A stretch of 64,000 bases of DNA, taken from contig JBAYLA010000003.1 of NCBI GenBank assembly GCA_041664285.1, positions 4,684 through 68,683 of the forward strand. Direction: 5' to 3'. The stretch is from Minisyncoccota bacterium. GTDB taxonomy: Bacteria > Patescibacteriota > Minisyncoccia > Phycocordibacterales > UBA9973. Positions 5,730 through 31,309 of this stretch are shown here, in pieces. How positions within the stretch are numbered: position 1 is the first letter of the stretch; every line of letters starts with the position of its first letter. The notes below the pieces were generated by a model. The model was given only the letters and a program-made list of their open reading frames with translations. It was not told where the DNA came from and ran no database searches. A program made the position numbers and the translations under genes.

Positions 5730-8078
5730 TTATTGCACTGTAGTGGTTGTAGTTTTCTTACCAGATGGAAGATCAGAAATAACTGTAGTTTTTTTACGGA
5801 AAGACTGATCAAAAATGTATCTAGCTAAAAATGCAAGGATGAGGATCAAGATAAGCAATAGAAGCCATCCGAATAGATTTGTTGGAAGAAAGCCAGCTCC
5901 AAATACGTTTGCTCCAAGTGGTAAGATAGTTGTTTCATCTTTTGTTGCACTCCAGACTTGGGCAGAAACATTAGCATTGACTGATTGAGGTTGTCCAGCA
6001 GGGTCTGTATAACTTAAAGTTGCAGGGAAGTTCAAATTTGTTCCTTCAGCAATATTGTCTCGGACTCGAGTTTTGATGGTAACAGTTCCTTGACCATTGG
6101 CCTTCAGAGTTCCTAAAGTAAAGATTAAAGTATTTCCAGATCTATTTGGGTTATTTGGATTTGAAGAAATGTAATCTACTTCATAGGGAAGATCTACCCT
6201 TAGGGTAAGATTAGAAATTGCTCCTGTGCCTATATTTTGATAGCTGACGGTGTAGTTAATTTCATCTCCAGGACGTGGTCTAGTGTTGTCTATCGTCGGA
6301 ACGATTGGTTGGTTGCGATCAACAGAAGAGGTAATAAGGACAAGTGAAGTCGGAATAGGTTTTGGATTAACGATTGTTTGATTACGAACGGTTATTGTTT
6401 CTGAATCTACAGCAGTCCCGAAATTATTACTACAGGTAAGGGTAAAAGTTCTACTGCCTGTTAATGATCCAGTGTAGAAACTTCCTGGACCAATGCTTTT
6501 TGTTCCTGCCCATCCAACAGATCCTCCTGATGCATTACAATAAGTCGCATTGGTAGTAATCCAACGAAGAGTAGCAGAACCGTTGTAGGCTACATTTGTC
6601 TGATCGGAATAAAGCACTACTGTTGGACGATTGTTAACAACAATATTATATCTGCAAGGGAGTACTCCGCCGTAATTTATGGCACTTGTATCTCGGCAAG
6701 TTTGAATAATGTATGTACAAGGCAGTACACCTCCGTAATTATTAGCATTTATATCTTGGCAAGTTTGAATGTAGTTATTATATCTGCATGGCAATACTCC
6801 ACCATAATTTATAGCACTTGTATCTCGGCAAGTTTGAATGTATGTACAAGGTAATGTTCCTCCATAATTGTTGGCACTTGTGTCTTGGCAAGTCTGTTGT
6901 TGATATTGGTTTACATAAACAGTGGCTGCAGCGCTTGCTTGCTGTCCATTTGTGCCATAACAAGTGATTGTATAATTATTTGTATACGTTGGATAGACAG
7001 AAGAAGATCCGGAAGTTGCACTGCCTCCGTTCCATGAACCAGAACAATAAGATGCATTAGTAGAATTCCAAGTCAAAATTGAACTATTGCCATTCTGAAT
7101 AGAAGAAGGATTGGCATAAAGAGTGACGGTTGGAGTTTGGGTTGTTTGATTTACAGAAACAGTAGCTGAAGCACTGGCTTGCTGTCCGGTACTATTCACA
7201 CAAGTAACACTGTAAGTGGTAGTGACGTTTGGATTAACTATTCCTGATCCACTTGTAGCGGTACTGGAAGTCCAATAAGAAGAACAAGAAGTTGCGTTTG
7301 CAGAATTCCAGACTAAGGTTGAATTACCTCCATATTGAATACTAGATGGATTGGCATAAAGAGTGACGGTAGGAGTTTGCACAAAACATGCTTCATTTGT
7401 ATATGACTGAGTAGAAGATCCAGAACAATAAGCTCCACCGTTACTTGGACTTGGATTGGTGCAGGTACGAGTTTGAGTGCCTGAATATCCACATTGAGTA
7501 CTCTTAGCACTCCAGTCGCTCCAGCCACCGTTTACAGGCACTGAACATGGGGGATTTGTATATGATTGACTAGAAGGTCCAGAACAATAAGCTCCACCGT
7601 TAGCAGGAGTTGGATTGGTACAAGTACGAGTTTGAGTGCCTGAATATCCACATTGAGTACATTTAGCACTCCAATCACTCCATCCTCCGTTTACGGGAGT
7701 TGGGGCAGGGGTACAGGAAGGAGTAGTGAAATTCAAAGTATCACCAATAGCCTTGCCATATCTATTTGAAGCCATTGCTCGATAAGAATATAAACTATTT
7801 TCAGAAAGATTGTTTATTGTTGCTGAAAAAAATTGATCAGAAGAAAAAGTTTGACTTGGAGTGCTGTAGATAGTTGAATTACCTGGCCCCCAATCAAACC
7901 ATACGGTAGTAGGTGAGCCATGAGTTACAAAATCACCCTCTATTGTGGCACTATGGCAACTTAAAGCTATAGGCCCTGCCAAAGCAATTTTAGTAGGAAT
8001 TAAAGTAGAGGCAAAAAGACCAAACAGAGCAATAGCGCTTATTGTTAAAAATTTTGTTTTAAATGTTGTATTTTTCAT
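5730..8078 (-). CDS. large cell-surface protein: signal peptide, FN3-like N-domain, 2 thrombospondin type-1-like repeats, 2 Ig-like ~78-aa repeats, 4 tandem ~23-aa Cys repeats, DUF11-like domain, C-terminal TM anchor
   Basis: WSDWSAK[CS]TQCGYSGTQTRTCTNP...C x2 (TSP1 W-S-x-W-S / C-S-x-T-C-G pattern); QTC[QR]DTSA[IN]NYGG[TV]LPC[RT]Y x4; C-terminal LLLLILILILAFLA hydrophobic anchor. Confidence 0.85.
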   Translation of the reverse strand: MKNTTFKTKFLTISAIALFGLFASTLIPTKIALAGPIALSCHSATIEGDFVTHGSPTTVWFDWGPGNSTIYSTPSQTFSSDQFFSATINNLSENSLYSYRAMASNRYGKAIGDTLNFTTPSCTPAPTPVNGGWSDWSAKCTQCGYSGTQTRTCTNPTPANGGAYCSGPSSQSYTNPPCSVPVNGGWSDWSAKSTQCGYSGTQTRTCTNPSPSNGGAYCSGSSTQSYTNEACFVQTPTVTLYANPSSIQYGGNSTLVWNSANATSCSSYWTSSTATSGSGIVNPNVTTTYSVTCVNSTGQQASASATVSVNQTTQTPTVTLYANPSSIQNGNSSILTWNSTNASYCSGSWNGGSATSGSSSVYPTYTNNYTITCYGTNGQQASAAATVYVNQYQQQTCQDTSANNYGGTLPCTYIQTCRDTSAINYGGVLPCRYNNYIQTCQDINANNYGGVLPCTYIIQTCRDTSAINYGGVLPCRYNIVVNNRPTVVLYSDQTNVAYNGSATLRWITTNATYCNASGGSVGWAGTKSIGPGSFYTGSLTGSRTFTLTCSNNFGTAVDSETITVRNQTIVNPKPIPTSLVLITSSVDRNQPIVPTIDNTRPRPGDEINYTVSYQNIGTGAISNLTLRVDLPYEVDYISSNPNNPNRSGNTLIFTLGTLKANGQGTVTIKTRVRDNIAEGTNLNFPATLSYTDPAGQPQSVNANVSAQVWSATKDETTILPLGANVFGAGFLPTNLFGWLLLLILILILAFLARYIFDQSFRKKTTVISDLPSGKKTTTTTVQ
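6645..6905. repeat. four tandem ~66-69 bp coding repeats inside surface-protein gene
   Basis: DNA tandem repeats encoding QTC[QR]D...LPC[RT]Y units; coding, not CRISPR. Confidence 0.6.
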
Positions 8079-10077: not shown

Positions 10078-10563
10078 ATGAAAGATAAGAAATTTACACT
10101 TTTTCATTTATTTTGGGGGATTGTAGGATTATTAATTGCTCAAGCTTTTCTCTTTTGGTTTTGGCCTAATGCAAGTATAAATACAGGCTTGATTTTGATT
10201 TTTGGAATAGTGGGGGTGGGGATGAATATCTATGTGGCTATTGAAGCCATTGAAGAAGTGAGTAGTCGTTTAGAGATGCTCATTTTTTTATCTCTTATCG
10301 TTTTAGAATTTATTCTATTTTTCTCTTTTGAGTACTGGTTTCTTATTTTAGAACAACCAGCAAGTTTTCCTACACTGACGGCTGACTTTCTTAATCTTGT
10401 TTTACATAGTACTATGGTGTTTATTTTTAATCCGATTCATTTACCAGCAACCGCGGTTGGGAGTGCTCTTATCCTCATTAATACTCTTGGTACTTTAGGT
10501 CTTGTTTTATTTATTCTTCAAAATGTTTGGCAACTTCGTCCCGCTAATCCTGATTCTCTCTAA
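10078..10563 (+). CDS. hypothetical polytopic membrane protein
   Basis: ATG at 10078 (track ORF begins at an upstream GTG 10030); 4-5 TM helices. Confidence 0.5.
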   Translation: MKDKKFTLFHLFWGIVGLLIAQAFLFWFWPNASINTGLILIFGIVGVGMNIYVAIEAIEEVSSRLEMLIFLSLIVLEFILFFSFEYWFLILEQPASFPTLTADFLNLVLHSTMVFIFNPIHLPATAVGSALILINTLGTLGLVLFILQNVWQLRPANPDSL

Positions 10564-11174
10564 GTTATTTTTTGTTTTAGTGCTTGCAATTTTTTCAATA
10601 AAAATGGATGAATAATCTTTTCTTCATCGTGTTCAATGAATTCTTGGGTGGAAACTGCAAGCCCCGCTTGTTCATACTCAAAAGCTTTTTCCATAGCTTG
10701 ATATTTGTCTACTTGTCTGGCAAATGAAGATACTGAATCTTGTCCATTTTCAAATCTCATCCATAATTCAAAAATTATTTTCCCTTTCTCTCCTAGCTTT
10801 TCACAAATTCTAGTCATAGCCGAGAGTTCAAGCTCATGTTTTTCTTTTCTTAAAATTTCTTCATTTACATTAGTTTTAAGAATAGCCAAATCTCCAACTG
10901 CCGGGTCTGATTCCGGCCAGTCATGAATTTCTAACATATCTAAAAGTTCTTCTAGTTCTTTCGAAGAGAATTCTGTGAGAGAATCAATTTCAGAAATAAC
11001 TAAATTCCTAGTAGAGATAATGTGTTCTTGGACAGACTCAGGATTCTTTACATCCCTATTAACCCAGCCTGTTCTTTTTAAAGCTTGGAGATTTCTTATT
11101 ACATTAGGGGCAAGATTAGAATATTTTAACTTAAATTTATTTTTTGGGAATGGTTCCATGCGTAGCACTGGCAA
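10560..11174 (-). CDS. HD-domain phosphohydrolase (YfbR-like 5'-deoxynucleotidase family)
   Basis: RTGW...ESVQEH...IHDWPE...D motifs of HD superfamily. Confidence 0.7.
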   Translation of the reverse strand: MPVLRMEPFPKNKFKLKYSNLAPNVIRNLQALKRTGWVNRDVKNPESVQEHIISTRNLVISEIDSLTEFSSKELEELLDMLEIHDWPESDPAVGDLAILKTNVNEEILRKEKHELELSAMTRICEKLGEKGKIIFELWMRFENGQDSVSSFARQVDKYQAMEKAFEYEQAGLAVSTQEFIEHDEEKIIHPFLLKKLQALKQKIT

Positions 11175-11179
11175 TAAGG

Positions 11180-12010
11180 TTATTTCAAATTTAGTTGTAA
11201 CTTGATTTTTTGAGCAATCTCGTCAGCCGTAAAATTAGCTTTAATTAAAAAATCATTGGCTCCCAAGGATAGGGCTTTTTTTCTATCCTCTTCCTCTCCC
11301 AAATTAGTAAGCATAATAACCGGTAAGTTTTTAATTGCGTTGTTTTGATGTGAACGAATTTTTTCTAGTATCTCAAAACCATTCATAGATGGTAAGATAA
11401 TATCCAATAAAACAATTAATGGAGCAAATTCTTCAATTTTTTTTATAACAACTGCTCCATCATCTACGATAAAAACATTAAAACCATCTATTTTTAATTT
11501 TTTTAACAAAATATTAGATAAAAATGAATCATCTTCAACTAATAAAACCTTAGTACCTTCATTTGACCCATCTTCTTTTTTTATATTTATATCTTCTGAT
11601 TTACTTAAAACACTACTGATTTCTTCTTTTTTTATATTTATATCTTCTGATTCACTTAAAACATTTTTGACTTTTTCCACAATCTCTTCTACATCAATCT
11701 GGGCCTTAATCATATAATCAATTGCTCCCAATTTTTTTATTTTTTCCAGTTCAACCGGCTGACCTGAATTAGAAATGATTATTATTGGAATTTTGTTGTT
11801 CTTTTTTTGCAAATTTTCCATAACTTCATAACCATTCATCTTCGGCATAATGATGTCAAGCAGAATTATATCCGGGTTCCATTCGTTAATTTTTGCTAAG
11901 CCATCTTCACCATTAACACTAATTTTTACGTCATAACCTACTTTAGTTAATTTTGCTGACAAGACATTAGCTAATACTTCCTCGTCTTCAATTATTAATA
12001 TTTTTTTCAT
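11180..12010 (-). CDS. response regulator with two tandem receiver (REC) domains and no output domain
   Basis: Two CheY-like domains (IIEDEE..D..LLDIIMP.MNG ; LLVEDD..D..LLDIILP.MNG...K) separated by a duplicated SEDINIKKE linker. Confidence 0.85.
   Translation of the reverse strand: MKKILIIEDEEVLANVLSAKLTKVGYDVKISVNGEDGLAKINEWNPDIILLDIIMPKMNGYEVMENLQKKNNKIPIIIISNSGQPVELEKIKKLGAIDYMIKAQIDVEEIVEKVKNVLSESEDINIKKEEISSVLSKSEDINIKKEDGSNEGTKVLLVEDDSFLSNILLKKLKIDGFNVFIVDDGAVVIKKIEEFAPLIVLLDIILPSMNGFEILEKIRSHQNNAIKNLPVIMLTNLGEEEDRKKALSLGANDFLIKANFTADEIAQKIKLQLNLK
11576..11669. repeat. 2 x ~51 bp tandem direct repeat inside tandem-REC gene (encodes duplicated linker)
   Basis: TTTTTTATATTTATATCTTCTGATT[TC]ACTTAAAACA repeated. 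Confidence 0.5.
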
Positions 12011-12040
12011 ATTTATTTATGTATATTATAAACTATTTTA

Positions 12041-14149
12041 TTAAATATTTCCAACAATAGGAATAAAAAAGTCTACTTCTGTGCCCTTACCTTCTTCGCT
12101 TTTCAAACTAATCGTGCCATTATGTTTTTCTATAATATTCTTAACTAAAAATAATCCCAATCCAGATCCTTCCGTTTCCAGCTTAATCGCATTAGCTGCT
12201 CTAAAAAACTTAGAAAACAACTTTGGTTGATCAGTGTCTGGGATACCCACTCCCTGATCTTTAATTTTAACATGCAAACTCTGCTTGTCAATTTCAGCAA
12301 GAATTTGAATTTTTCCGTATTCGGGAGTGTAATTTATGGCATTACTTAATAAATTTTGCATAACCATGACCATTCTTTCTTTATCTAAAGATATTTTTGG
12401 TAGTCCGGTGGGGATTTCAACATTTAACTCTTGATGATTTTTTGCCACCAAACTATCGATATTACTAATCGCTATATCTAAAACTTCTTTAAAATCAGAA
12501 ATTTCAAAATTAAATCCGAATCTGCCTTCTTCAATACGGGAAACATTTAATAAATCATTAACTAATCTAATTACTCTCTCATTGCTTATATATCCTTTAT
12601 TTAATAATTCTTGCTGTTCCGCGTTTAATTTTCCGGCATCACCTTCTAAAACCATCTTAATTCCCCACTTAATAGCTGACAGAGGGGTTCTTAGTTGATG
12701 GGCAGCTATGGAAATAAATTCTGACTTGATTTTATCAATTCCTTTTTCGCGAGTGGTGTCATAAAATATTTTCATCACGCCAATCTGCTCGTTATTAATA
12801 TCTAATACTTTAGCTGTAATAACTTTATAGGTAGATTCTCGTTGATTTTCTTTTATAGTAATTTCTTCATTTATAAAAATTTGTTCCTTGGTATTTTCCT
12901 TAATTTCCTTAATCTCATAATATTTTTTAATAACTGATTTAAAATTGGAAATGCTAAATTTATTGTCTGTAGCTATTTGTTTATCTAAATCGGCGTTACT
13001 TAAACCAAAAACCCTAGAAGCAGCCGGGTTAATTATATTGATTTTATAATGTTTATCTAAAACAATGATTGGGTCAGTAAAATTAGCAATAATAGCCATG
13101 GTTTTATTTTTTTCCTTTTCCATTTCTTCGCGAGCCTTGGTGTTGTCTTCTAAAATATTAAGTAAAGCTTTTTTTGATTCATCTAACTCTTTTATTTTAT
13201 TTTGTAGCTCTTCAGTTTTTTTACTTACTTTTTTTTCTAAATTTAAATTTAACTCTTCTAATTCCTTGGCTAACTTTTTAGTTTTTTCTTCTTTTATAAT
13301 TTCTTGATTAGCTGATTTAATTAAAAGATAGCCGATTATTATATAAAGTAAAAATATAATTGAACTAATTATTCGTGCCTGTCCGCCTTGAGTTAAAAAT
13401 ATTTGAATAAATAAAACTAAGCCGATTAACATCGTTAGTAGTTCTGTCAAAACCAACTTAATTTCAAATAAATTATTTTTTAAAATAGCATATGCTGTGA
13501 AAATTACTAAAAAAATAGATAAATAGGGGGTTAATTCATTAGAAATAGGGTTAACGGTGCGATCAAACACCGGCCAAATTCCGCTAAAAATTAAAGGGCC
13601 AATAGTTGATAATAATACTCCCCAAATAAAATATTTTATTTGCCATTTTTTAAAGCCAGATTCTTTATAATATGCTCTAACTAAATAATAAAGTCCCAAA
13701 CAAGAAATTAAAACTACGAAAGGTTTACCTAATAAAATATTTAAAGTTCCGGTGGTTTCAGAGTTAAGGTATGGATAATCCGGACTAACGGCAGTCATAA
13801 AATATGGTGTAGCTATAGCCATATAACTCATGAGTATTCCGGTTACGTTTAAAAAAATAATTTTTAACCTTATATACTTAACGTGATTAGTAAAATAATA
13901 AACAAAAATCAGATAATAAGCGCTAAGCATAAAGGCTCCTACCCAATGGGCTCTAGACCAAAATAATTTATTGCTGTTAGGGAAATATACAGCCGCCCAA
14001 CTAAAACACAATGAAGCATAAAAGAAAAAACACCAACCTAAATGAAACGTAGCTTTGTTTTTGCCTCCTCGCCATACTATATAAGCCGCTAGAATATTCA
14101 AAAGGGCGAGAATAAACATTATAATAGCTTTGATTTTTTCAATATCCAT
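12041..14149 (-). CDS. sensor histidine kinase, polytopic N-terminal domain + coiled coil + PAS + HisKA + HATPase_c
   Basis: ~8 TM helices; H-box SIAAHQLRTPL; N, G1, G2 boxes (NLLSNAINYT, DQGVGIP, GSGLGL). Confidence 0.9.
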   Translation of the reverse strand: MDIEKIKAIIMFILALLNILAAYIVWRGGKNKATFHLGWCFFFYASLCFSWAAVYFPNSNKLFWSRAHWVGAFMLSAYYLIFVYYFTNHVKYIRLKIIFLNVTGILMSYMAIATPYFMTAVSPDYPYLNSETTGTLNILLGKPFVVLISCLGLYYLVRAYYKESGFKKWQIKYFIWGVLLSTIGPLIFSGIWPVFDRTVNPISNELTPYLSIFLVIFTAYAILKNNLFEIKLVLTELLTMLIGLVLFIQIFLTQGGQARIISSIIFLLYIIIGYLLIKSANQEIIKEEKTKKLAKELEELNLNLEKKVSKKTEELQNKIKELDESKKALLNILEDNTKAREEMEKEKNKTMAIIANFTDPIIVLDKHYKINIINPAASRVFGLSNADLDKQIATDNKFSISNFKSVIKKYYEIKEIKENTKEQIFINEEITIKENQRESTYKVITAKVLDINNEQIGVMKIFYDTTREKGIDKIKSEFISIAAHQLRTPLSAIKWGIKMVLEGDAGKLNAEQQELLNKGYISNERVIRLVNDLLNVSRIEEGRFGFNFEISDFKEVLDIAISNIDSLVAKNHQELNVEIPTGLPKISLDKERMVMVMQNLLSNAINYTPEYGKIQILAEIDKQSLHVKIKDQGVGIPDTDQPKLFSKFFRAANAIKLETEGSGLGLFLVKNIIEKHNGTISLKSEEGKGTEVDFFIPIVGNI
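12044..12790. repeat. ~750 bp direct repeat (3' end of HK gene), ~85-90% identical to 15001-15745
   Basis: Near-identical DNA and protein (HisKA+HATPase) between the two kinase genes. Confidence 0.6.
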
Positions 14150-14151
14150 GA

Positions 14152-14964
14152 CTATTTTTGATTATTTTCTGTCAATCTAGTAATTTCTTTTTTTAATTCT
14201 ATCATTTTTAATTCTCTGCCCACTACTTGTTTTTCGAATCTCTCTAGCTCAGCAACTTTATTATCTAATTCTTGATTGCTGGCAATTAATTTTTCACTAT
14301 GTTGGGCTAATTCTTTAGTTTGTTCGTTTAACTGCTGCCCTTTTTCTTTAAGTAATGCCTCTCGTTCAAATAATATTTTGGCGCTATAACCAGAAAATGA
14401 TCCAACGATGATATAAAAAATAGCTGTGGTTACTGTTTTTGTTAAAGCAATAGATAAATTTTGAAACTCAATAGTTGTTACGTCATAACGGGGGATATGG
14501 GCAATAATTCCGTAATATTCAGCTACAACTAATAAATTAATTAAAACACCAGCAACAATGGCGGTTACAATTGAGCCTCTGTACCCAAAAATTAACGAAG
14601 CGGAAACTACTGGCATAAAAAAGAAAACTGTAGAGATACTTTCAACTCCTCCGGCCGAATGCATAATTATGATAAAAAAAACCAACTCTAAAATAATCTG
14701 AACATAATTAATTAAAGTTAACAATCCTTTAGAAAAATTCTTTTGTACCTTCTTTATCGCAAAATATAATATTAAATTTATAACTCCAAAAATAATAAAT
14801 AATAAAACCATAGTGGCAAAAGGAAAGCCAACATTAGAGTGGCTGATAGTTTTAGTTAAAACACCGATTAACAAAACTGCAACCATATAAATCCAGCGAG
14901 TTTTAATAATCCACTCGCTAGTAGTGATTTTTCGTTCTAAGCTTCCGTTCACATCTTTTGACAT
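14152..14964 (-). CDS. 6-TM membrane protein with C-terminal signalling-helix/coiled coil, no kinase domain (paralog of 17184-18053)
   Basis: C-terminal ...ELERFEKQVVGRELKMIELKKEI; immediately upstream of kinase gene. Confidence 0.6.
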   Translation of the reverse strand: MSKDVNGSLERKITTSEWIIKTRWIYMVAVLLIGVLTKTISHSNVGFPFATMVLLFIIFGVINLILYFAIKKVQKNFSKGLLTLINYVQIILELVFFIIIMHSAGGVESISTVFFFMPVVSASLIFGYRGSIVTAIVAGVLINLLVVAEYYGIIAHIPRYDVTTIEFQNLSIALTKTVTTAIFYIIVGSFSGYSAKILFEREALLKEKGQQLNEQTKELAQHSEKLIASNQELDNKVAELERFEKQVVGRELKMIELKKEITRLTENNQK

Positions 14965-14997
14965 AAAATTATTTTAGCTGTCAATTAATTTTAAAAT

Positions 14998-16560
14998 CTA
15001 AGTTTTATTAATTGGTAAAGTAAAGCTTACTTCTGTGCCTTTACCTTCTTCGCTTTTCAAACTAATCGTGCCATTATGTTTTTCTATAATATTCTTAACT
15101 AAAAATAATCCCAATCCAGATCCCTCTGTTTTCATCTTAATCGCATTGGATGCTCTAAAAAACTTAGAAAACATTTTAGGTTGATCTTCTTTAGGAATAC
15201 CTACTCCTTGATCTTTAATTTTGACATTAAGATACTGCTTATCAATTTCAATAATTATTTGAATTTTGCCATATTCTGGAGTGTATTTTATAGCATTACT
15301 TAATAAATTCTGCATAACCATGACCATTCTTTCTTTATCTAAAGATATTTTTGGTAGTCCGGTGGGGATTTCAACATTTAACTCTTGATGATTTTGGGTC
15401 ACTAGACTATCAACGTTGCTAACAGCTACATTTAAAATTTCCTGAAAATCAGTTTTCTCAAAATTAAATCCAAATCTGCCTTCTTCAATACGGGAAACAT
15501 TTAATAAATCATTAACTAACAGGATAATTCTTTCATTGCTTTGATACCCTTTATTGAGTAGTTCTTGCTGTTCGGCATTTAATTTGCCCATATCGCCATC
15601 CAATATCATTTTTATTATCCACTTAATAGCCGAGAGAGGTGTTCTTAATTGATGAGCGGCGATAGAAATGAATTCAGACTTCATTTTATCAATTGCTTTT
15701 TCACGTGTTGTGTCGTAAAAGATCTTCATTAATCCGAGATAATTTAGATTTTTATCCAAAACTTTAGAAGTAACAACTTTATAAACCCTTTCTTCGTTGT
15801 TATACGTAACAATAGCTTCTTCCAGTTTGGTGCCATCCGATTCCTCAATCAATTTTTCAACCGAGAATTTATTATGAATAATGTTGGCAAAATTATTCAA
15901 ACTAAAGTTATTGCTATCTAATATTTCAATACCCAGATCATTATCACTGATGTTTAAAATTTCTTTGGCTGAGGAATTAAATAGTGCTAGCTTGTGGTAA
16001 TTATTTAAAAAAATAATCGGGGTTGAAAAACTTGATACTAAAGCCATGGTCTTCTCTTTTTCTGTTTCAGCTTTTTTCTTTTCTTCGTTGACATCCTCCA
16101 GCATATTCAGCAAAGCTTTCTGAGATTTTTGTAGCTTTCCTTCACTTTCCTTAAAACTTGTAAGATCAAAAAAACTTATAAAAAAACCAATAATTTCTCC
16201 TTGTTGATTTTTTCGCAGTAAAGTAGAAACACCGACATAAATCTGATTTGTGTCTTTAGTTTTAAAAATAACCTCTAGAGAAGACAATGACCCTTTTTCG
16301 ATTGTTGTTTTGGTTATTTGTTCAACATCTGAATTGCTGAGAAGTTTTTTTAATGTCTCGCCAACAAGTTCTTCTGTTCCATATCCAGAAATTTTTTCTA
16401 TGGATGGATTTGTTTCTAAAATAATGCCCGTCGGACTAACCATGCATATTGGTAGAGGTAAAAAAGAAAATAAATCACGCGCGTAGCTTTCTAGTAATGT
16501 CAAATCATCCAGCATAATGGCAACTTTATCTTTTTCTGAAGTGAGGTTTTTTATTTCCAT
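14998..16560 (-). CDS. cytoplasmic sensor histidine kinase (PAS - coiled coil - PAS - HisKA - HATPase_c), no TM
   Basis: H-box SIAAHQLRTPL, HATPase motifs; C-terminal ~245 aa ~88% identical to 12041-14149 product. Confidence 0.9.
   Translation of the reverse strand: MEIKNLTSEKDKVAIMLDDLTLLESYARDLFSFLPLPICMVSPTGIILETNPSIEKISGYGTEELVGETLKKLLSNSDVEQITKTTIEKGSLSSLEVIFKTKDTNQIYVGVSTLLRKNQQGEIIGFFISFFDLTSFKESEGKLQKSQKALLNMLEDVNEEKKKAETEKEKTMALVSSFSTPIIFLNNYHKLALFNSSAKEILNISDNDLGIEILDSNNFSLNNFANIIHNKFSVEKLIEESDGTKLEEAIVTYNNEERVYKVVTSKVLDKNLNYLGLMKIFYDTTREKAIDKMKSEFISIAAHQLRTPLSAIKWIIKMILDGDMGKLNAEQQELLNKGYQSNERIILLVNDLLNVSRIEEGRFGFNFEKTDFQEILNVAVSNVDSLVTQNHQELNVEIPTGLPKISLDKERMVMVMQNLLSNAIKYTPEYGKIQIIIEIDKQYLNVKIKDQGVGIPKEDQPKMFSKFFRASNAIKMKTEGSGLGLFLVKNIIEKHNGTISLKSEEGKGTEVSFTLPINKT
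15001..15745. repeat. second copy of ~750 bp HK 3'-end repeat
   Basis: see 12044-12790. Confidence 0.6.
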
Positions 16561-17162
16561 GTTACTTTATATTCATGATATTCATCTCCTCGGGAAAGAC
16601 ACTTTGTTTCTTCGAAATTGATTTCGTCGCTTTTAAATAACATATGAAAAAATCCACAAAAATAACTTCCTAGATACATACAGAAAATAGGATGTAATTC
16701 GTTGTTATTTTTTATTTGGAAAATTGAATATTTTTTTTCTTCATTAAGCTCTAAAGGGATAAGATCTCCTGAAGTATAATGTTTATGCCAAATTTTGGGG
16801 GCTTCTTCAAAAAATACCTTTTCCTTAGAAAGGAAATAATTAATAAACAATTTGAGCATTAGCGATGTTTTACTGGCAAACATTCCCATTTCTTTCATTT
16901 TTTTATCATCAAAAGAGAAAACTTTCTTTATAGCTAGCAGAGAAATAACACGTAAACCTATAGGATTAAAAGATAGTGTTTCAATTTTTTTATAATCAAT
17001 TGGACAACCAAGAGAAGCTAACTCTTCTTCTAACTTCTTTAATCCATCTTCACCCTTTTCTCTCAAAATATAGTTGCAGTCTGTTTTAAAAACTACCCCT
17101 CTAACTTCTCCCGGGGAAGCCATTAATTTATCAATCAATTCTTTATTTAATTCTTGGTTCAT
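16551..17162 (-). CDS. ~200-aa cytoplasmic protein of unknown family (paralog of 18130-18738); possible ligand-binding/sensor accessory
   Basis: Shared motifs GEVRG...KEKGE[DE]GLKK...HPI[FH]C...[KT]C..RGDEYH; no TM. Confidence 0.5.
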   Translation of the reverse strand: MNQELNKELIDKLMASPGEVRGVVFKTDCNYILREKGEDGLKKLEEELASLGCPIDYKKIETLSFNPIGLRVISLLAIKKVFSFDDKKMKEMGMFASKTSLMLKLFINYFLSKEKVFFEEAPKIWHKHYTSGDLIPLELNEEKKYSIFQIKNNNELHPIFCMYLGSYFCGFFHMLFKSDEINFEETKCLSRGDEYHEYKVTWK

Positions 17163-17183
17163 AATAATATATTAGATTAATTT

Positions 17184-18053
17184 TTAATTTGTTGTATTAA
17201 TTTTAGCGTTTGTTATTTTTTTAATTTCTTCTTTTAATTCTACCATTTTCAATTCACGATCAACAGAAAGTTCTTGAAATCTTTTTAGGTCTTTCATTTT
17301 ATTTTCTAAGTCCTCAGTTCTTTTTTGTACTTGATTGTCTAAATTATTAGCTATATCTTGTAATTCTTTTGTTCTGGCGAGAACTCTTTCTTCTAGTACA
17401 GCTTTGGATTTTTCTAATTCGACTTTTGTTTTTTCTAACTCCCCGGTTCTTTTTCTAAGAATGTCGGTAAGACCACTGGTTGCAAGGCCGGACAAAATAA
17501 ACGTTACAAAAACAAAAGAAAGAGTGGCAACAACATATTTGGGATCTAGATAGAGATTTTCCCTGAATTGAGCAAAGGGAATATAGGGAATTATCTGAAA
17601 GTATTCCAAACAGGTCAATGCTCCGAACCACAAAAAAGCAACCAGGCTTACCAAAGTTCCTTTTATTTTATCTAAAACAATATTGCAATAAATAATAGTA
17701 AAAAGATAAAAAATAACTCCTATCCATACGATGCCACCATTAGCATAGATAATAATTGTTAAAAAAAATAATTCAAATATAGTAGAATAGACAAGATATA
17801 AATTGCTGATTCCTGAAACAGTTTCCATTTTCTTGACTAGGGTTTTAAAAATAAGAGCACTTATAATCCAAAAAAAGATAATTAGAACAGTAAGCCAAGT
17901 GTATTGAGAATGGGGGAAAAAATCTAGTGACCAAATAAGCAAAACGCCCAAAAAAAATGAGATAAGCGTTACAAGTCTTAGCTTTAATGTATATGCAGTT
18001 TTATCAAGAATGTCCCTTAACTCTGGGGTTTCGTCTAAAACTTTAATTGGCAT
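17184..18053 (-). CDS. 6-TM membrane protein with C-terminal coiled coil (paralog of 14152-14964)
   Basis: C-terminal ...RFQELSVDRELKMVELKEEI mirrors paralog. Confidence 0.6.
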   Translation of the reverse strand: MPIKVLDETPELRDILDKTAYTLKLRLVTLISFFLGVLLIWSLDFFPHSQYTWLTVLIIFFWIISALIFKTLVKKMETVSGISNLYLVYSTIFELFFLTIIIYANGGIVWIGVIFYLFTIIYCNIVLDKIKGTLVSLVAFLWFGALTCLEYFQIIPYIPFAQFRENLYLDPKYVVATLSFVFVTFILSGLATSGLTDILRKRTGELEKTKVELEKSKAVLEERVLARTKELQDIANNLDNQVQKRTEDLENKMKDLKRFQELSVDRELKMVELKEEIKKITNAKINTTN

Positions 18054-18129
18054 AAAATTTCTTGATGAATTATTTTTATACTTCTATTTTAGCATATTTA
18101 AATAGGAATATATATTGAAAATTAATAAG

Positions 18130-18738
18130 CTACCATTTAATTAAAAATTGATGGTACTCATCTCCTCGGTGAACGCATTTTATCTCCTGACAATCTATTA
18201 TTGTCTTAGTGTCAGAAGCCAACTTTACTATATTTGAAAAATAACCACTAAGATGTAAGCAATGTATTGGGTGAAAATTAAAATTTTTAATGTCTACAAT
18301 TATATATTTTTTTTCCTCATTTATTTCTTCAACAACTAAATCACCAATCGTGTAATATTTTCTCCACATCTCAGGTGCCTTTTGGGCCAAAGAATTCATA
18401 GAGCCCATATAATATTGGAAAAATAATTTAATAATATAAGAAAGCTTAGAGCCTAAAATGCCAATTTCTTTCATTTTTTCATCACTAAAATTAAAAGTTT
18501 TCTTTATAACAAGTAATCCTATTATTTCTTGCCATATTGGGTAAAATTCCCACTTATTTAATTCTTTCTGTCCTCTTGTAACACCAAGACGGGCTACTGC
18601 TTCTTCAAACTTTTTTAACCCTTCTTTACCTTTTTCTTTAATAATAAAATCACTCTCGTTTATAAGAGCTATGCCTCTTACTTCACCCTTTTTGTTCATC
18701 AATTGACTTATTTCTTCTTGCAAAATTATTTCTTCCAT
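18130..18738 (-). CDS. ~200-aa cytoplasmic protein, paralog of 16551-17162
   Basis: same conserved Cys/His-containing motifs. Confidence 0.5.
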   Translation of the reverse strand: MEEIILQEEISQLMNKKGEVRGIALINESDFIIKEKGKEGLKKFEEAVARLGVTRGQKELNKWEFYPIWQEIIGLLVIKKTFNFSDEKMKEIGILGSKLSYIIKLFFQYYMGSMNSLAQKAPEMWRKYYTIGDLVVEEINEEKKYIIVDIKNFNFHPIHCLHLSGYFSNIVKLASDTKTIIDCQEIKCVHRGDEYHQFLIKW

Positions 18739-18811
18739 ATAATTTAAAAATTATTCTTTATATTTCTATTTTAACATATTTTAATAGGAATATATGGAGT
18801 TGCTTTCAATG

Positions 18812-18896
18812 CGGAGGCGGTGAGATTCGAACTCACGGTGCCTTGCGGCACTCCTGTTTTCAAGACAGGTGCACTAAACCACTATGCGACGCCTCC
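18812..18896 (-). tRNA. tRNA-Ser (anticodon TGA), long variable arm
   Basis: Acceptor GGAGGCG/CGCCTCC, anticodon stem CCTGT/ACAGG loop CTTGAAA, variable arm AGTGCCGCAAGGCACC, T-arm GTGAG-TTCGAATC-CTCAC. Confidence 0.85.
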
Positions 18897-18944
18897 GTTT
18901 ATTTAATTTTTACCGAGCTTAGTTAATCCAGAGACCTCATTGTA

Positions 18945-18966
18945 CTAAATACTATGCGACGCCTCC
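18945..18966. repeat. 22-nt direct repeat of tRNA-Ser 5' end (CTAAA..ACTATGCGACGCCTCC), 70 bp from the tRNA
   Basis: 18875-18896 vs 18945-18966, 20/22 identical. Confidence 0.5.
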
Positions 18967-19016
18967 ATACCACAAACCCTACTGTATTTTTGCTTTTTTC
19001 TCAAGTTTTTAAAACT

Positions 19017-19045
19017 AAAATACCCCAGATAATCCGGGGTATTTT
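19017..19045. terminator. rho-independent terminator hairpin AAAATACCCC-agataatcc-GGGGTATTTT
   Basis: 10-bp stem with A/T-rich flanks directly after 19054-19317 gene 3' end. Confidence 0.6.
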
Positions 19046-19053
19046 AGTTTTGT

Positions 19054-19317
19054 TTATTGATTTGATGGCTTTTCTATGGTAATGATTTCTTTGATATCAG
19101 CCCACTTCTTTTTAGCAATATAGAAAATATATATAATTTCTAATATTCCAACAGTGTTTACTACCAATAACACAAGAAACCACACTTTTTGGTTGTTTTT
19201 GCCAGCTATCCACAAAGCACAACCCTTCCAAAACAAAGACCATATTAAAATTGGTAAAATAGCCCAACCCCAACTACTCAAACCATTATACATTAACAAT
19301 GCATTATATTGTTCCAT
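19054..19317 (-). CDS. small membrane protein, unknown function
   Basis: 87 aa, two or three TM helices, Trp-rich. Confidence 0.45.
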   Translation of the reverse strand: MEQYNALLMYNGLSSWGWAILPILIWSLFWKGCALWIAGKNNQKVWFLVLLVVNTVGILEIIYIFYIAKKKWADIKEIITIEKPSNQ

Positions 19318-19364
19318 AATAGGGTATTATACCATAAATAGATTTTTATGTTAATATTCTTCAT

Positions 19365-19814
19365 ATGACTACAGGTAGATTTATGGGGATTGATTATGGA
19401 ACTAAGAGAATAGGAGTAGCAATTTCAGACGAAAACCATACCTTAGCTTTCCCGAAAGAAATTGTTTTAAATGATTTAAATACTTTTAAAAAGATTAATG
19501 ACATAATAAAGAAGGAAAAAGTGGAAGAAATCGTGGTGGGGGAGTCGGTTGATTTTTCAGGTAAATTAAATGTTTTATCAGGTAGGATTGAAGTTTTTAT
19601 TTTAGAACTTAAAGAGAGGTTCAAGTTGCCAGTGCATAAACAAAAAGAGTTTCTGACTTCAGTAGAGGCCCGAAAATCTGGAATTAATAAAAAAAGTTTA
19701 AATTCACCACAGTCACATAGTAAAGTAAAACAAATAAAATCTGGCCGAGTAGATGCATCCGCTGCGGCACTTATATTACAGAGGTATTTAGATCGAAGAA
19801 ATAAACAAAAATGA
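19365..19814 (+). CDS. ruvX: Holliday-junction resolvase-like nuclease RuvX/YqgF (pre-16S rRNA nuclease)
   Basis: N-terminal GIDYGTKRIGVAISD, ...VGES motif; RNase H-like fold family. Confidence 0.85.
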   Translation: MTTGRFMGIDYGTKRIGVAISDENHTLAFPKEIVLNDLNTFKKINDIIKKEKVEEIVVGESVDFSGKLNVLSGRIEVFILELKERFKLPVHKQKEFLTSVEARKSGINKKSLNSPQSHSKVKQIKSGRVDASAAALILQRYLDRRNKQK

Positions 19815-20140
19815 TTAATATAGAAGATTTTAAAAAAATAGATATTGTGGTTGGGGAAATTTTGTCTGTGGAGAAAGTTCCAGAGACAGATAAACTTTTG
19901 AAGCTTTCTGTTAATTTAGCTGAAGCTTTGCCGCGGCAGATAGTTTCTGGAATTTCTTTGTATTTTTCTGATTGTTCAGTTTTAGTGGGAAAGAAATGCA
20001 TGTTTGTAGCAAATTTAGAACCTAGAATGATACGAGGGATTGAAAGTAATGGGATGATCTTGGCTATTTCTACCGAAGATGGAAAGTTTTCACTTTTAGA
20101 ACCGAATGATGATATTCCAGTCGGTACCCATGCAAAGTGA
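19811..20140 (+). CDS. tRNA-binding protein (EMAP/Myf/Trbp111-like OB-fold, CsaA-like)
   Basis: IVVGEILSVEKVPETDKLLKLSVNLAE...; overlaps ruvX stop. Confidence 0.75.
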   Translation: MINIEDFKKIDIVVGEILSVEKVPETDKLLKLSVNLAEALPRQIVSGISLYFSDCSVLVGKKCMFVANLEPRMIRGIESNGMILAISTEDGKFSLLEPNDDIPVGTHAK

Positions 20141-20216
20141 TAGCGATGGAGACTTAAATATCGTATATGGAGTACTATATATCAATAGCACTCGGACATT
20201 AAACAAACTATTTAGC

Positions 20217-20246
20217 TTGTTTATGCTCCTCGTTTATTGATATAAT
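20217..20246 (+). promoter_or_regulatory. candidate sigma-70 promoter TTGTTT-18-TATAAT; -10 ends 7 nt before pilM ATG (leaderless or near-leaderless)
   Basis: hexamers seen in sequence; spacing counted by hand. Confidence 0.35.
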
Positions 20247-20252
20247 ATTACT

Positions 20253-21350
20253 ATGTTTAGTAATTCATTTAATAGAATTCTTTTCAGATTTTTTCCTCTA
20301 CCTAAAATTCTTTCAAAACCATCTTTTGGTTTAGATATTTCAGATGAATCATTAAAATTTGTAGAGCTTATTGCTAATAAAAATGGGATTAGGGTTGGAC
20401 GATATGGAGAGCGAAGTATCCCACTTGGAGTTATTGAATCTGGGAAAATTAAAGATTCAAAGAAAATAGAGGAAATTCTTTCCACTCTAAGAAAAGAAGA
20501 AGGAATAAAATCTGTACGTGTTTCTTTGCCCGAAGAACAAGTGTACCTCTTTCCTTTAAAGTTAGAAAAATCAGGTTTGAAAGATGTTCGAGAAGGAATT
20601 GAGCTTGCCTTGGAAGATCATATACCGATATTAGCCCAAGATACGATTTTTGATTTTGAAATAGTTAATGAGAATACTCAATATTTAGAGGTTCAAGTTA
20701 CAGCTATACCAAAAAATATAATTGAAAATTATTTATTAATTTTTGAACATTCTCAAATATCAGTTAAGTCTTTTGAGCTTGAGGCACAGGCAGCCTTTAG
20801 AGCTGTTATTAAAAAAAATGATATGGAGACTTATATGATTGTAGATTTTGGGAAAAAAAGAACTGGTATTTTTATTGTTTCAAAAGGTATTGTGGTATTT
20901 ACCTTTACTCTTGATTTAGGAGGAGTGATGTTGACTCAGATGATTCAAAAAAACTTCAATATAAGTTTTGAAGAAGCAGAAAAAATGAAAGAAGAATACG
21001 GCCTAGAGCGCAATACTAATAATAAAGAAATATTTGCGGTACTTTTAAATAGTGTTTCTGTTTTACGGGATGAGATAGCCAAACATTTTTTATATTGGCA
21101 TACACATAAAGACGAAGAGGGTAAAAACAATCTACCCATTAGAAAAATAATTTTTTGCGGTGGCGATTCTAATTTAAAAGGATTTCCCGATTACATTTCT
21201 GTCAGTATGAAAAGTCCTGTGGAGATGGCTAATGTTTGGATTAATATATTAAACACAGAAAATTCTGTTCCAGAAATGAGCTTTATGCAGTCACTTTCTT
21301 TTACTACTGCTTTAGGATTAGCCTTAAGAGATTTTGATGGTGATGAATAA
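20253..21350 (+). CDS. pilM: type IV pilus assembly ATPase-fold protein PilM
   Basis: actin-like fold family; FGLDISDESLKFVEL...; followed by PilN/PilO-like genes. Confidence 0.85.
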   Translation: MFSNSFNRILFRFFPLPKILSKPSFGLDISDESLKFVELIANKNGIRVGRYGERSIPLGVIESGKIKDSKKIEEILSTLRKEEGIKSVRVSLPEEQVYLFPLKLEKSGLKDVREGIELALEDHIPILAQDTIFDFEIVNENTQYLEVQVTAIPKNIIENYLLIFEHSQISVKSFELEAQAAFRAVIKKNDMETYMIVDFGKKRTGIFIVSKGIVVFTFTLDLGGVMLTQMIQKNFNISFEEAEKMKEEYGLERNTNNKEIFAVLLNSVSVLRDEIAKHFLYWHTHKDEEGKNNLPIRKIIFCGGDSNLKGFPDYISVSMKSPVEMANVWINILNTENSVPEMSFMQSLSFTTALGLALRDFDGDE

Positions 21351-21355
21351 ATTGT

Positions 21356-21898
21356 ATGATTAATTTAATTCCCAAAGAAGAAAAGAAGAAGATGGTCATA
21401 GATTTTTATTTTAGATTTGCAATTTTATTTGTAGGAATGCTTGATTTTTGTATTTTAATTGCTTTTGTTTCTCTCTTGCCATCATATTTTGTTACTTCTA
21501 TAAAATATTCTTTGATTAGTACAAAATTAGAAAACCAACAACTAGAACCATTACCTATTTTAGGACAAGAATCACTGGCTTCGGTTAAAGACATAGATAC
21601 TAAGCTTGTTTTAATTGAAAAGTTTGAAAAAAATAAATTTCTTCTTTCTGTGAAGGTAATTAATGCCGTTCTTCTTAAAAAAAGGTCTGATATTAAAATT
21701 ACCCAAATTTTATATGAAAACAATGAAAAAAATGGTAGAAAAATTAGTCTTACCGGAGTAGCTCCTTCTCGTGAGGTTTTGCTTTTGTTTCGCAAAGCAC
21801 TAGAGGATAGCCCTGATTTTAAAAATATTGTTTTGCCAATTTCAAATTTTGTGAAAGGGTCTGATATCGATTTTAATTTAAGCTTAAGTCCTTCGTAA
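21356..21898 (+). CDS. pilN: type IV pilus inner-membrane component PilN-like
   Basis: N-terminal LIPKEEKKK + single TM, periplasmic domain; position after pilM. Confidence 0.6.
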   Translation: MINLIPKEEKKKMVIDFYFRFAILFVGMLDFCILIAFVSLLPSYFVTSIKYSLISTKLENQQLEPLPILGQESLASVKDIDTKLVLIEKFEKNKFLLSVKVINAVLLKKRSDIKITQILYENNEKNGRKISLTGVAPSREVLLLFRKALEDSPDFKNIVLPISNFVKGSDIDFNLSLSPS

Positions 21899-21915
21899 GA
21901 TGATAGAATAAAATT

Positions 21916-22455
21916 ATGAAAAATAATCTTCAAAAAATATTACTTGTTATCTTTATCGCACTTTTGTTATTGGGTTGTTTGGCTTTTGTATTTTTATATA
22001 AAAAAATAAATGATAATAATCAAAAAATACAAGAGAATACAACAAGCTTTCAAACAGAGGCACGTAGACGTGAAGAAATTGCTTCTCTTGATCGAGTCCT
22101 TCAAAAAAATGCTTCAAATAGAATTTTGCTTGAAAGTCATTTTATAAAGAGTTCTGACGTTGTTCCATTTTTAAATATGATTGAAAGAGTGGGGAAGGAG
22201 GCAGGAGTTTCTTCAAAAATTAATTCTGTTGATGCCAAGGTAAATAATTCAGGATTAACGGTTGATTTAAAAATAGAAGGTAAATTTGAAGCAATTTATA
22301 AATTTTTAACCTTATTGGAAAATTCTCCATATGTGCTCGATTTTATATCAATGGATATACATAGACTCTCATCTCCAGTTACATTAGATAAAAATGTTAA
22401 AAATGAAAGCTGGGTGGCCGTTTTTAAGATACAACTTTTAAGTTTTATTCCATGA
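21916..22455 (+). CDS. pilO: type IV pilus inner-membrane component PilO-like
   Basis: single TM + coiled coil + periplasmic domain; position. Confidence 0.55.
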   Translation: MKNNLQKILLVIFIALLLLGCLAFVFLYKKINDNNQKIQENTTSFQTEARRREEIASLDRVLQKNASNRILLESHFIKSSDVVPFLNMIERVGKEAGVSSKINSVDAKVNNSGLTVDLKIEGKFEAIYKFLTLLENSPYVLDFISMDIHRLSSPVTLDKNVKNESWVAVFKIQLLSFIP

Positions 22456-30847: not shown

Positions 30848-31309
30848 TTATTTTTTTTCTTCTAGTTCTCCATCAATATGATCTAGCTTTTTTTCTAGTC
30901 TACTTAAAGTATTTTGTAAATTTTTAAGTTGGGTTTCTTCTGTTTCTATTTCACCTTCTTCTTTTTCTGTAATTTTTTTCTCACCGACAAGTCCAGTAAC
31001 AATAAGACGATTCCCAAGGAATTCAGTGACAAACAAACCAACCACTACAAGAATAGAAGTTCCAATAATAAGTGAGAAAATACTTCCTATACCCATATCA
31101 TCAGCTGTGTGCCATACTCCACGCCAAAACAGCACAATACCAGTACCCCCAATAAATGCATATAAAATAGGGTAATGACTTAACTTTATTCTAATTTTAT
31201 CTTCTAATTTATCAAAAAAGTCTACAAATTTTTTTATTGACATAGAAACTATTATACATGAAGATATGATAATATAAAAATATGGAAAAGAAGATAGTGA
31301 AAATTTCAA
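30848..31309 (-). CDS. hypothetical membrane protein with C-terminal acidic coiled coil
   Basis: two or three TM helices, then EKEEGEIETEETQLKNLQNTLSRLEKKL. Confidence 0.45.
   Translation of the reverse strand: MKFSLSSFPYFYIIISSCIIVSMSIKKFVDFFDKLEDKIRIKLSHYPILYAFIGGTGIVLFWRGVWHTADDMGIGSIFSLIIGTSILVVVGLFVTEFLGNRLIVTGLVGEKKITEKEEGEIETEETQLKNLQNTLSRLEKKLDHIDGELEEKK

Follow-up and report, generated by a model that had tools for sequence, protein, structure and literature searches.

A probable split two-component cassette with stand-alone V4R-fold proteins and S-helix-terminated membrane proteins in Patescibacteria

Background

Bacteria of the candidate phyla radiation (CPR), or Patescibacteria, have very small genomes with few regulators, and the means by which they sense their hosts and their environment are largely obscure. 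A question about this sensing is raised by a 64,000-nucleotide stretch of a Minisyncoccota genome (assembly GCA_041664285.1, contig JBAYLA010000003.1, positions 4,684 to 68,683 of the forward strand; hereafter the window), in which eight genes at 10560-18738 encode two small soluble proteins, two polytopic membrane proteins without a kinase core, two histidine kinases, a protein made of two receiver domains, and an HD phosphohydrolase: do these genes make up one signalling system, and if so, how are its parts divided and where does the signal go? We conclude that the cluster is probably an expanded copy of a modular, split two-component cassette that is found across Patescibacteria and has a non-transcriptional, CheY-like output. 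Separate polypeptides account here for sensing, for membrane anchoring and for kinase activity. The superfamilies that take part (HisKA kinase, REC, PAS, the V4R/H-NOX fold, and the signalling helix or S-helix) are already known, as is the principle of a kinase served by an accessory sensor; what is new is their combination, the pairing of a stand-alone V4R protein with a kinase, and a large family of sensors that ends in an S-helix/RELKM module. Our literature searches found no description of such a cassette.

Cluster layout and conservation in other genomes

The eight open reading frames (ORFs) lie head to tail on the minus strand, from 18738 to 10560 (Table 1), bordered by a tRNA-Ser gene upstream and a convergent ORF downstream, and the gaps between them are, in transcription order, 76, 21, -10 (an overlap), 33, 2, 30 and 5 nt. 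ORF coordinates and Pfam domain calls agree with an earlier note on this DNA, which had described eight co-directional minus-strand genes: two ~200-aa proteins (here V4R-like 1 and 2, or V4R1 and V4R2), two proteins with six transmembrane helices (6TM) and a coiled coil (CC) but no kinase core (TM1 and TM2), a soluble PAS-PAS kinase (HK1), a polytopic PAS kinase (HK2), a REC-REC protein without an output domain, and an HD phosphohydrolase. From their order, gaps and domains we resolve these genes into two input/kinase sets, TM1-V4R2-HK1 and TM2-HK2, together with one additional V4R copy and the fused REC-REC protein. P0121, from a Candidatus Paceibacterota metagenome-assembled genome, matches TM1 at 100% identity, so that the organism is a CPR bacterium.

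A genome scan with ten sequences of the V4R family returned 12 species-level loci, and in ten of these, as far as the contigs reach, the order is the same: a CC-terminated sensor, one to three V4R copies, a PAS histidine kinase, and two REC genes. The linkage of 6TM-CC and 200-aa proteins to kinases in other genomes, on which the earlier note had staked its idea of a split sensor, is therefore conserved in 10/12 loci. The two exceptions hold the most divergent V4R members, one beside a PAS-only protein (L011) and the other between Nudix genes. Independent metagenome contigs show the identical cassette order. Related loci in sister lineages exchange parts within it: the order is SBP, dCache-HAMP-CC, V4R, PAS-CC, FIST, HK, REC, REC in L019 and L020; FIST, HAMP-CC, inserted genes, HK, REC, REC in L021; and PocR, V4R, PAS-CC, FIST, HAMP-CC, FIST, HK in L022. 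Across L019-L022 the membrane protein of the slot thus varies and the same terminal CC module is kept. The inserted genes of L021 (7014-9814 of that locus), between the HAMP-CC sensor and the kinase, are an AAA_14/DUF4143 gene, TusA and a sulfur-transporter gene, so the cassette tolerates insertions.

The link between V4R and kinase genes is close. HK1 orthologs follow V4R in 10/12 genome loci, and in nine of these ten the first gene other than V4R begins to align to HK1 at one of its first nine residues, which means that it carries the first PAS domain (PAS1); the remaining called ORF, in L004, aligns to HK1 only from residue 30. Most loci have a gene for a PAS histidine kinase directly after the last V4R; in L016-L020, L022 and L011 its place is taken by a gene for a PAS1-CC (~185 aa) or PAS-only protein. 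The additional V4R copy of L001 and of the window stands ahead of the 6TM gene. An overlap of exactly 10 nt joins the V4R stop to the next start in L001, L002, L003, L006, L007, L009, L016, L017, L018 and the window; in the window it reads ATGGAAATAA (V4R2 stop, HK1 start), and the ATG is drawn from the codons of a conserved C-terminal Thr-Trp. These overlaps mark the V4R gene as one that is, by its sequence, translationally coupled to the gene bearing PAS1. The conserved unit consists of an input domain with a terminal S-helix/RELKM module, one or more V4R-fold proteins (one to three copies, sometimes joined by a PAS1-CC or FIST protein), a kinase with an ALLNxLED helix placed before its last PAS domain, and two CheY-like receivers.

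Stand-alone proteins with a predicted V4R/H-NOX fold

V4R-like 1 and V4R-like 2 are paralogs (43% identity, E 9e-60) that carry the motifs HPI[FH]C and KC..RGDEYH, the Cys/His motifs in which the earlier note had seen a cofactor- or ligand-binding module, a suggestion that the predicted fold and zinc-site pattern described below bear out. No Pfam or NCBIfam model exceeded its threshold against the 200-aa proteins, the sole match being V4R at E 0.023: V4R2 scored 15.2 bits against Pfam V4R (PF02830), below the gathering cut-off of 31, and V4R1 gave no Pfam V4R match. Among 38 family members, 21 match Pfam V4R at E<=1 (best 7.5e-6), and no Pfam family other than V4R is matched at E<=0.1 by these members or the window proteins. 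The 200-aa protein has 157 homologs; those listed are 181-213 aa long, bear without exception the names of Patescibacteria lineages or unclassified bacteria, and include one labelled '4-vinyl reductase'. V4R-like 1 has an ortholog of 88% identity at the same position in L001.

An AlphaFold2 model of the 200-aa protein built on the 38-member alignment (pLDDT 92.8, pTM 0.88) has an H-NOX/V4R/Bet3-type fold. The structures listed for this model, each with a figure that bears no label, are H-NOX (14.5), the VirS sensor domain (12.2), DmpR (12.0), PoxR (11.1), the MJ1460 V4R protein (10.8) and TRAPP subunits (~10). At the level of sequence the relation is faint: the V4R protein, taken as a single sequence, matched nothing among the sequences of the PDB, and the family profile matched only MopR, weakly (E 0.21), over the part that contains Cys..Glu-x-x-Cys. 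In this alignment the Cys..Glu..Cys segment falls on MopR residues 154-188, with H196 just outside the aligned stretch. Seven columns of the 38-member alignment are invariant (G22, G93, W125, C161, E185, C188 and H196), and V4R-like 1 keeps the invariant W, C, E, C and H. The zinc ligands of DmpR are C151, E172, C177 and C185, and its strictly conserved W128 separates the zinc from the phenol (PMC7264223). Judged from the alignment, the invariant W/C/E/C/H of the 200-aa proteins reproduces the zinc-site and Trp pattern of DmpR. With the confidently predicted V4R/H-NOX fold and this DmpR-type pattern, the 200-aa proteins are best described as stand-alone V4R-type modules, presumed to bind a ligand and with a putative structural zinc site.

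A heme-binding H-NOX protein (PF07700) was considered and rejected: the fold fits, but there is no conserved heme ligand. H196, within the zinc motif, is the sole invariant His, and His128 is swapped for Tyr or Asn in several members; the YxSxR propionate-binding motif is absent from the 38-sequence alignment, and Pfam HNOB matches neither the window proteins nor the family members. Since no His but H196 is invariant and YxSxR is missing, the 200-aa proteins are not heme H-NOX proteins.

Membrane proteins with a terminal S-helix/RELKM module

TM1 and TM2 are likewise paralogs (26% identity, E 7e-21), and both finish in ..RELKM[VI]ELK[EK]EI, the terminal motif being RELKMVELKEEI in TM1 and GRELKMIELKKEI in TM2. 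TM2 falls just short of Pfam 6TM_PilS (PF25323; E 7.7e-6, 26.2 bits where the cut-off is 27), a model that TM1 does not match; 8 of 26 family members match it at E<=0.01, and precomputed matches exist for P0157, P0159 and P0172. In an AlphaFold2 model of TM1 (pLDDT 81.5) there are six membrane helices with short loops, the last of which runs on as an unbroken helix, residues 171-288, to the C-terminus.

This stalk is built of two to three repeats of LExxVxARTKEL, that is, of S-helix units with A/E-R-T-K-E-L, in which T228 is invariant and R245/T246 are nearly so. The S-helix is defined by its 'ERT' signature (PMC1592074), and both a ~40-residue helical segment and this signature are present in the 6TM-CC proteins, in keeping with the signalling-helix-like coiled coil that had been suspected from the letters alone. 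The S-helix repeats are followed by ELERFxxLxV-[G/D/N]-RELKMxELKxEI, with R266, E267, L268, K269, M270, L273 and K274 invariant in 26 homologs. In 113 of 120 homologs, those fitting the motif pattern, RELKM lies 5-32 residues from the C-terminus, and six more have a variant of the motif at their end.

The module is also widespread. Among 1.84 billion cluster representatives searched with a profile, 1,947 proteins have the CC module at E<=1e-10, and in almost all of the best 150 representatives it stands at the extreme C-terminus. The inputs ahead of it are diverse (6TM, dCache-HAMP, HAMP, PAS, GAF, CHASE, CHASE4, HisKA_7TM and transglutaminase), no kinase core was found behind it among the CC-module proteins examined, and in P0241 and P0242 it occurs twice in tandem at the C-terminus. 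Homologs of the module span 100% to ~25% identity across genomes, and Pfam has no model for it. JGI tags some CC proteins as 'methyl-accepting chemotaxis protein'. A resemblance of the RELKM end to a degenerate DHp/H-box helix (VGRELKM against VSHELRTP) was examined with hhalign, using 101 CC modules and the DHp regions of 15 cassette kinases, and was dropped at a probability of 0.1%.

Kinases and receivers

HK1 has PAS, PAS_10, HisKA (1.7e-16) and HATPase_c (8.9e-31) domains in Pfam and no transmembrane domain, laid out as PAS1, an S..ALLNMLED helix, PAS2, HisKA and HATPase_c. HK2 has HisKA_7TM, PAS, HisKA (9.5e-15) and HATPase_c (1.4e-26), with an S-helix and ALLNILED between the HisKA_7TM and PAS domains. 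The H-box AAHQLRTPL and the N and G boxes can be read in the kinase sequences, by which HK1 and HK2 are assigned to the class I HisKA kinases, with the phospho-acceptor His present. In 15/15 cassette kinases the motif S..ALLN[IM]LED.EEA...EKNKT stands ~145 residues before the H-box, and what lies ahead of this helix is PAS1, or a 7TM domain and S-helix (HK2), or an S-helix only. HK2 is without PAS1 and has no V4R gene before it; TM2 precedes it by the 2-nt gap.

The two kinase proteins are 68% identical across their C-terminal 378 aa. The final ~750 bp of their genes, which the earlier note had called near-identical, are in fact 83% identical (624/751), with short identical patches only; a repeat finder reports 86% over 300 nt, the identity is a mosaic of ~75-85% background and patches of 95-98%, and identity is unbroken for at most 85 nt (15311-15395 = 12357-12441). 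This mosaic with perfect patches suggests an older duplication followed by short gene-conversion tracts.

The REC-REC protein consists of two Response_reg domains (E 7.3e-46) and has no output domain. Both halves keep, as read from the sequence, the acidic pocket, the LLDIxxP Asp, the Ser/Thr and the Lys, the phospho-acceptor Asp standing in LLDIIMP and LLDILP. Other loci have two separate REC genes of ~122 aa, which match residues 2-122 and 144-273 of the REC-REC protein, and L003 also has fused REC genes; the REC-REC protein of the window is, by this comparison, a presumptive lineage-specific fusion of two single-domain receiver genes. No receiver in any locus examined carries an output domain. 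The linker of the REC-REC protein contains a 51-nt tandem duplication (Table 1), whose copies are 90% identical and encode a repeated SxSEDINIKKE.

Proposed mechanism and alternatives

We propose that the V4R-like protein would bind a small ligand, probably one that is hydrophobic or aromatic, in a pocket by its structural zinc site, as the motif pattern and the model suggest, and would modulate autophosphorylation of the kinase by binding to PAS1, encoded by the translationally coupled gene. This route through PAS1 is proposed by analogy, because H-NOX regulates co-encoded kinases in trans (PMC4436077), NosP inhibits its co-cistronic kinase VpsS (PMC6769237), and PAS(PYP)-V4R fusions are known (PMC12826048). 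The 6TM protein would sense or report a membrane-associated state and pass the signal in trans, through a dimeric S-helix stalk whose invariant RELKM end may dock on the kinase, and several sensors could converge on one kinase as chemoreceptors do on CheA. Phosphate would then move to the two single-domain receivers, which may act by protein-protein contact, or one of which may serve as a phosphate sink. Transcription would not be the target; the likeliest candidate is the type IV pilus machinery, for which the hint is weak and comes only from gene proximity. In the window, a PilM gene (PF11104, 2.3e-36) and genes for two ~180-aa single-TM proteins in the PilN/PilO positions (Table 1) lie in divergent orientation, with PilM 1.5 kb upstream of the cassette, and in six other loci a T2SSE ATPase gene lies two to three genes upstream of it (in L019 a fourth small gene intervenes).

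Several observations weigh against this scheme. The V4R assignment falls below the Pfam gathering score (15.2 against 31 bits), orphan CC and V4R proteins occur with no kinase nearby (L024, L012 and L011), and hhalign gave no sign that the CC module is related to the DHp region of the kinases. The proximity of T2SSE and PilM may be plain synteny, with TsaE and 5'-3' exonuclease genes in between, and a V4R-like domain is known as an output in archaea, as discussed below. Every protein-protein step of the mechanism, moreover, is one that we infer.

The alternative that retains most weight, unlikely as we consider it, is that ordinary two-component genes lie here among unrelated neighbours, the 6TM-CC and 200-aa proteins being independent of the kinases and linked to them by inherited synteny. 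In many CPR genomes the block does stand among housekeeping genes of strong synteny, since in L013, L016, L019, L021, L022 and L023 the order is T2SSE (on the opposite strand), TsaE with 5'-3' exonuclease or PolA, the cassette, and then Fpg, HolA and S20, and orphan CC and V4R genes are in line with this alternative as well. The slot logic is kept, however, as the parts are swapped, with 6TM, dCache-HAMP or HAMP before the CC module and V4R, PAS-CC or FIST behind it; the start-stop overlaps of V4R and PAS1 genes are conserved; and the accessory proteins are all recognised signalling input domains without an output of their own. The window itself is informative here, as its TsaE gene (Table 1) has no cassette adjoining: the cassette lies outside its canonical syntenic slot and retains its internal order.

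Less probable still is a downstream role for the V4R/H-NOX-like proteins, in which they would serve the phosphorylated receivers as targets or effectors. A precedent is archaeal MetOD1, an HNOB/V4R-like output domain with a conserved Cys cluster that methanogens have on the C-terminal side of REC in fused proteins (PMC5847659), and the receivers here are without an output domain. Against it, the V4R genes lie upstream of, and are coupled to, the gene bearing PAS1 and never adjoin the REC genes; V4R copies vary from one to three whereas there are always two REC domains; and among the listed homologs (181-213 aa) there is no fusion of REC to V4R, nor is any Pfam family but V4R matched at E<=0.1.

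The earlier note had also proposed that the output may be enzymatic, and a REC-REC protein that controls the adjacent HD phosphohydrolase, in the manner of REC-HD-GYP proteins, would provide it. The two genes are on the same strand with a gap of 5 nt, and the H..HD..D residues, read from the sequence, are intact; the domain, however, is HD_3 (E 3.6e-18), YfbR-like and thus of 5'-nucleotidase type, not HD-GYP, and tblastn found an HD homolog in none of 24 related loci, where Fpg, HolA or other housekeeping genes stand behind the receivers instead. We consider this output improbable and rejected it, the HD gene not being conserved in the related loci. Of the claim that the gene belongs to the cluster, the domain and the adjacency in the window stand, and a counterpart elsewhere does not; because no homolog occurs in related loci, the HD gene appears to be an adjoining, probably co-transcribed neighbour and not a conserved member or output of the system.

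That the 6TM-CC proteins are decayed or truncated kinases, whether pseudogenes, products of frameshifts or artefacts of assembly, and play no part of their own in signalling, could be argued from P0165, where the 6TM domain is joined to a HisKA_3/HATPase core, from P0157, where it is joined to PAS, and from the usual place of the S-helix between two domains (PMC1592074). This is very hard to credit when ~1,950 cluster representatives almost all end ~5-30 residues past the motif or repeat the module in tandem (P0241 and P0242), conservation of the module extends across genomes from 100% down to ~25% identity, and no kinase remnant lies past the stop, the window sequence there being the next gene.

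Set against the conserved gene order, the overlaps and the statistics of the terminal module, each rival does worse than the split-sensor model. A wider generalization of that model is possible, and we put it forward as a speculation with the odds against it: that the RELKM-terminated proteins, which comprise ~2,000 clusters, mostly from CPR bacteria, are unrecognised transmitter-less receptors whose S-helix stalk plugs in trans into a class I kinase. Interchangeable sensors (6TM, dCache-HAMP, PAS, GAF, V4R and FIST) would then feed a single kinase with two CheY-like outputs, in a chemoreceptor-like architecture without Che proteins. Such an architecture may be the chief means of sensing in these reduced, episymbiotic bacteria and may control their type IV pili.

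Relation to known systems and significance

A close parallel to the V4R-kinase pair is offered by H-NOX and HnoK-type kinases (HahK, HqsK) of Proteobacteria, from which the cassette differs in that its V4R protein has neither a heme His nor Y-x-S-x-R and carries a Cys/Glu/Cys/His zinc pattern instead, in that V4R is paired with a PAS1 domain and with a separate membrane S-helix protein, and in its restriction to CPR bacteria. In DmpR, MopR, PoxR and XylR, V4R is the N-terminal domain of an AAA+ sigma-54 activator, whereas that of the cassette is free-standing and coupled to a kinase; its Pfam V4R scores are sub-threshold, and the phenol-positioning His is not established in it. FIST proteins take the V4R position in sister CPR cassettes, while the window has the V4R fold and not FIST. 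NosP, too, is a FIST-domain protein. In the NosP/NahK-VpsS system, a co-cistronic stand-alone sensor inhibits a kinase that lacks a sensor (PMC6769237).

Chemosensory arrays, both MCP-CheW-CheA-CheY and Pil-Chp (PilG/PilH), resemble the cassette in that varied inputs (dCache, HAMP, PAS) share one cytoplasmic coiled-coil module, the receptors are separate from the kinase, there are two single-domain CheY-like receivers, and type IV pilus genes are near. The cassette differs in being without MCPsignal, CheA, CheW, CheR and CheB, in having a class I HisKA kinase, and in a coiled coil that is, in the model, a straight S-helix stalk and not a hairpin; MCPsignal, CheA and CheW had no matches in the window genes or neighbouring loci. 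As in the S-helix described by Anantharaman, Balaji and Aravind (2006), a repeated xRTxEL ('ERT') lies in a predicted long helix after TM or HAMP segments. In their description the helix sits 'almost always between two signaling domains' (PMC1592074), whereas here two to three tandem units and the invariant RELKMxELK end the protein, with no downstream domain. PilS, finally, shares a 6TM intramembrane input with short loops and nearby pilus genes, but the 6TM_PilS match of TM2 is sub-threshold, and there is neither a fused kinase core nor an NtrC-type PilR partner.

The cassette appears to be a conserved, possibly the principal, sensory system of Paceibacteria-type lineages. Functions that textbook kinases join in one chain are separate here, so that signal transmission through the S-helix becomes testable in trans. 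Two unannotated families are defined, the stand-alone V4R/H-NOX-fold sensor with its putative zinc site and the C-terminal S-helix/RELKM module, and database labels such as 'hypothetical protein' and 'methyl-accepting chemotaxis protein' are thereby corrected. Should the receivers indeed act on type IV pili, sensing would be linked to attachment or DNA uptake in episymbionts.

Genomic context

Two copies of a 39-nt direct repeat precede V4R-like 1 and TM1 (Table 1). They are 92% identical, lie 25-45 nt before the respective ATG, and hold TGnTAAAAT, which is like an extended -10 element, and a TATTTAAATA palindrome; by its sequence and position the repeat may be a duplicated promoter or operator. 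Scans for sigma-70 promoters and terminators in the AT-rich window performed no better than on shuffled sequence.

Table 1. Cassette genes and other features of the window
Feature	Position	Strand	Length	Remark
Gene 1, V4R-like protein 1	18130-18738	minus	202 aa	Predicted V4R/H-NOX fold, paralog 1
Gene 2, TM1	17184-18053	minus	289 aa	Candidate membrane sensor/anchor 1, 6TM + coiled coil
Gene 3, V4R-like protein 2	16551-17162	minus	203 aa	Predicted V4R/H-NOX fold, paralog 2
Gene 4, HK1	14998-16560	minus	520 aa	Soluble histidine kinase
Gene 5, TM2	14152-14964	minus	270 aa	Candidate membrane sensor/anchor 2, 6TM + coiled coil
Gene 6, HK2	12041-14149	minus	702 aa	Membrane histidine kinase
Gene 7, REC-REC protein	11180-12010	minus	276 aa	
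Gene 8, HD phosphohydrolase	10560-11174	minus	204 aa	HD_3 (YfbR-like)
39-nt direct repeat, copy 1	18757-18795	minus	39 nt	Upstream of V4R-like 1, just downstream of tRNA-Ser
39-nt direct repeat, copy 2	18075-18113	minus	39 nt	Upstream of TM1 gene
Linker duplication in REC-REC	11571-11672			51-nt tandem duplication
tRNA-Ser	18811-18896			Upstream border of the cluster
tRNA-Ser-like fragment	18935-18975	minus		Upstream of tRNA-Ser
PilM and PilN/PilO-position genes	20253-22455	plus		
TsaE	31282-31737			
Cys-rich surface protein	5730-8078	minus	782 aa	

Upstream of tRNA-Ser, the first ~16 nt of this gene are repeated (GGAGGCGTCGCATAGT) and then diverge; from the sequence, the fragment could be a tRNA pseudogene remnant or a scar of integration or rearrangement. 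Gene orientation switches near 19-20 kb, and there the sign of the GC skew also changes; a scan for DnaA boxes around the skew minimum gave nothing above chance. In L016, dnaA-dnaN lies ~7 kb upstream of the cassette. In L013, from a Nealsonbacteria genome, the RtcB RNA ligase gene (19023-20609) is split by an intein, Pfam Intein_splicing lying between the RtcB halves. Elsewhere in the window, the Cys-rich surface protein of Table 1 has a signal peptide, a C-terminal membrane anchor, TSP_1 repeats (E 1.8e-4), 'CxDxxAxNYGGxLPC' units and DUF11, and these features suggest that it could be an episymbiont adhesin.

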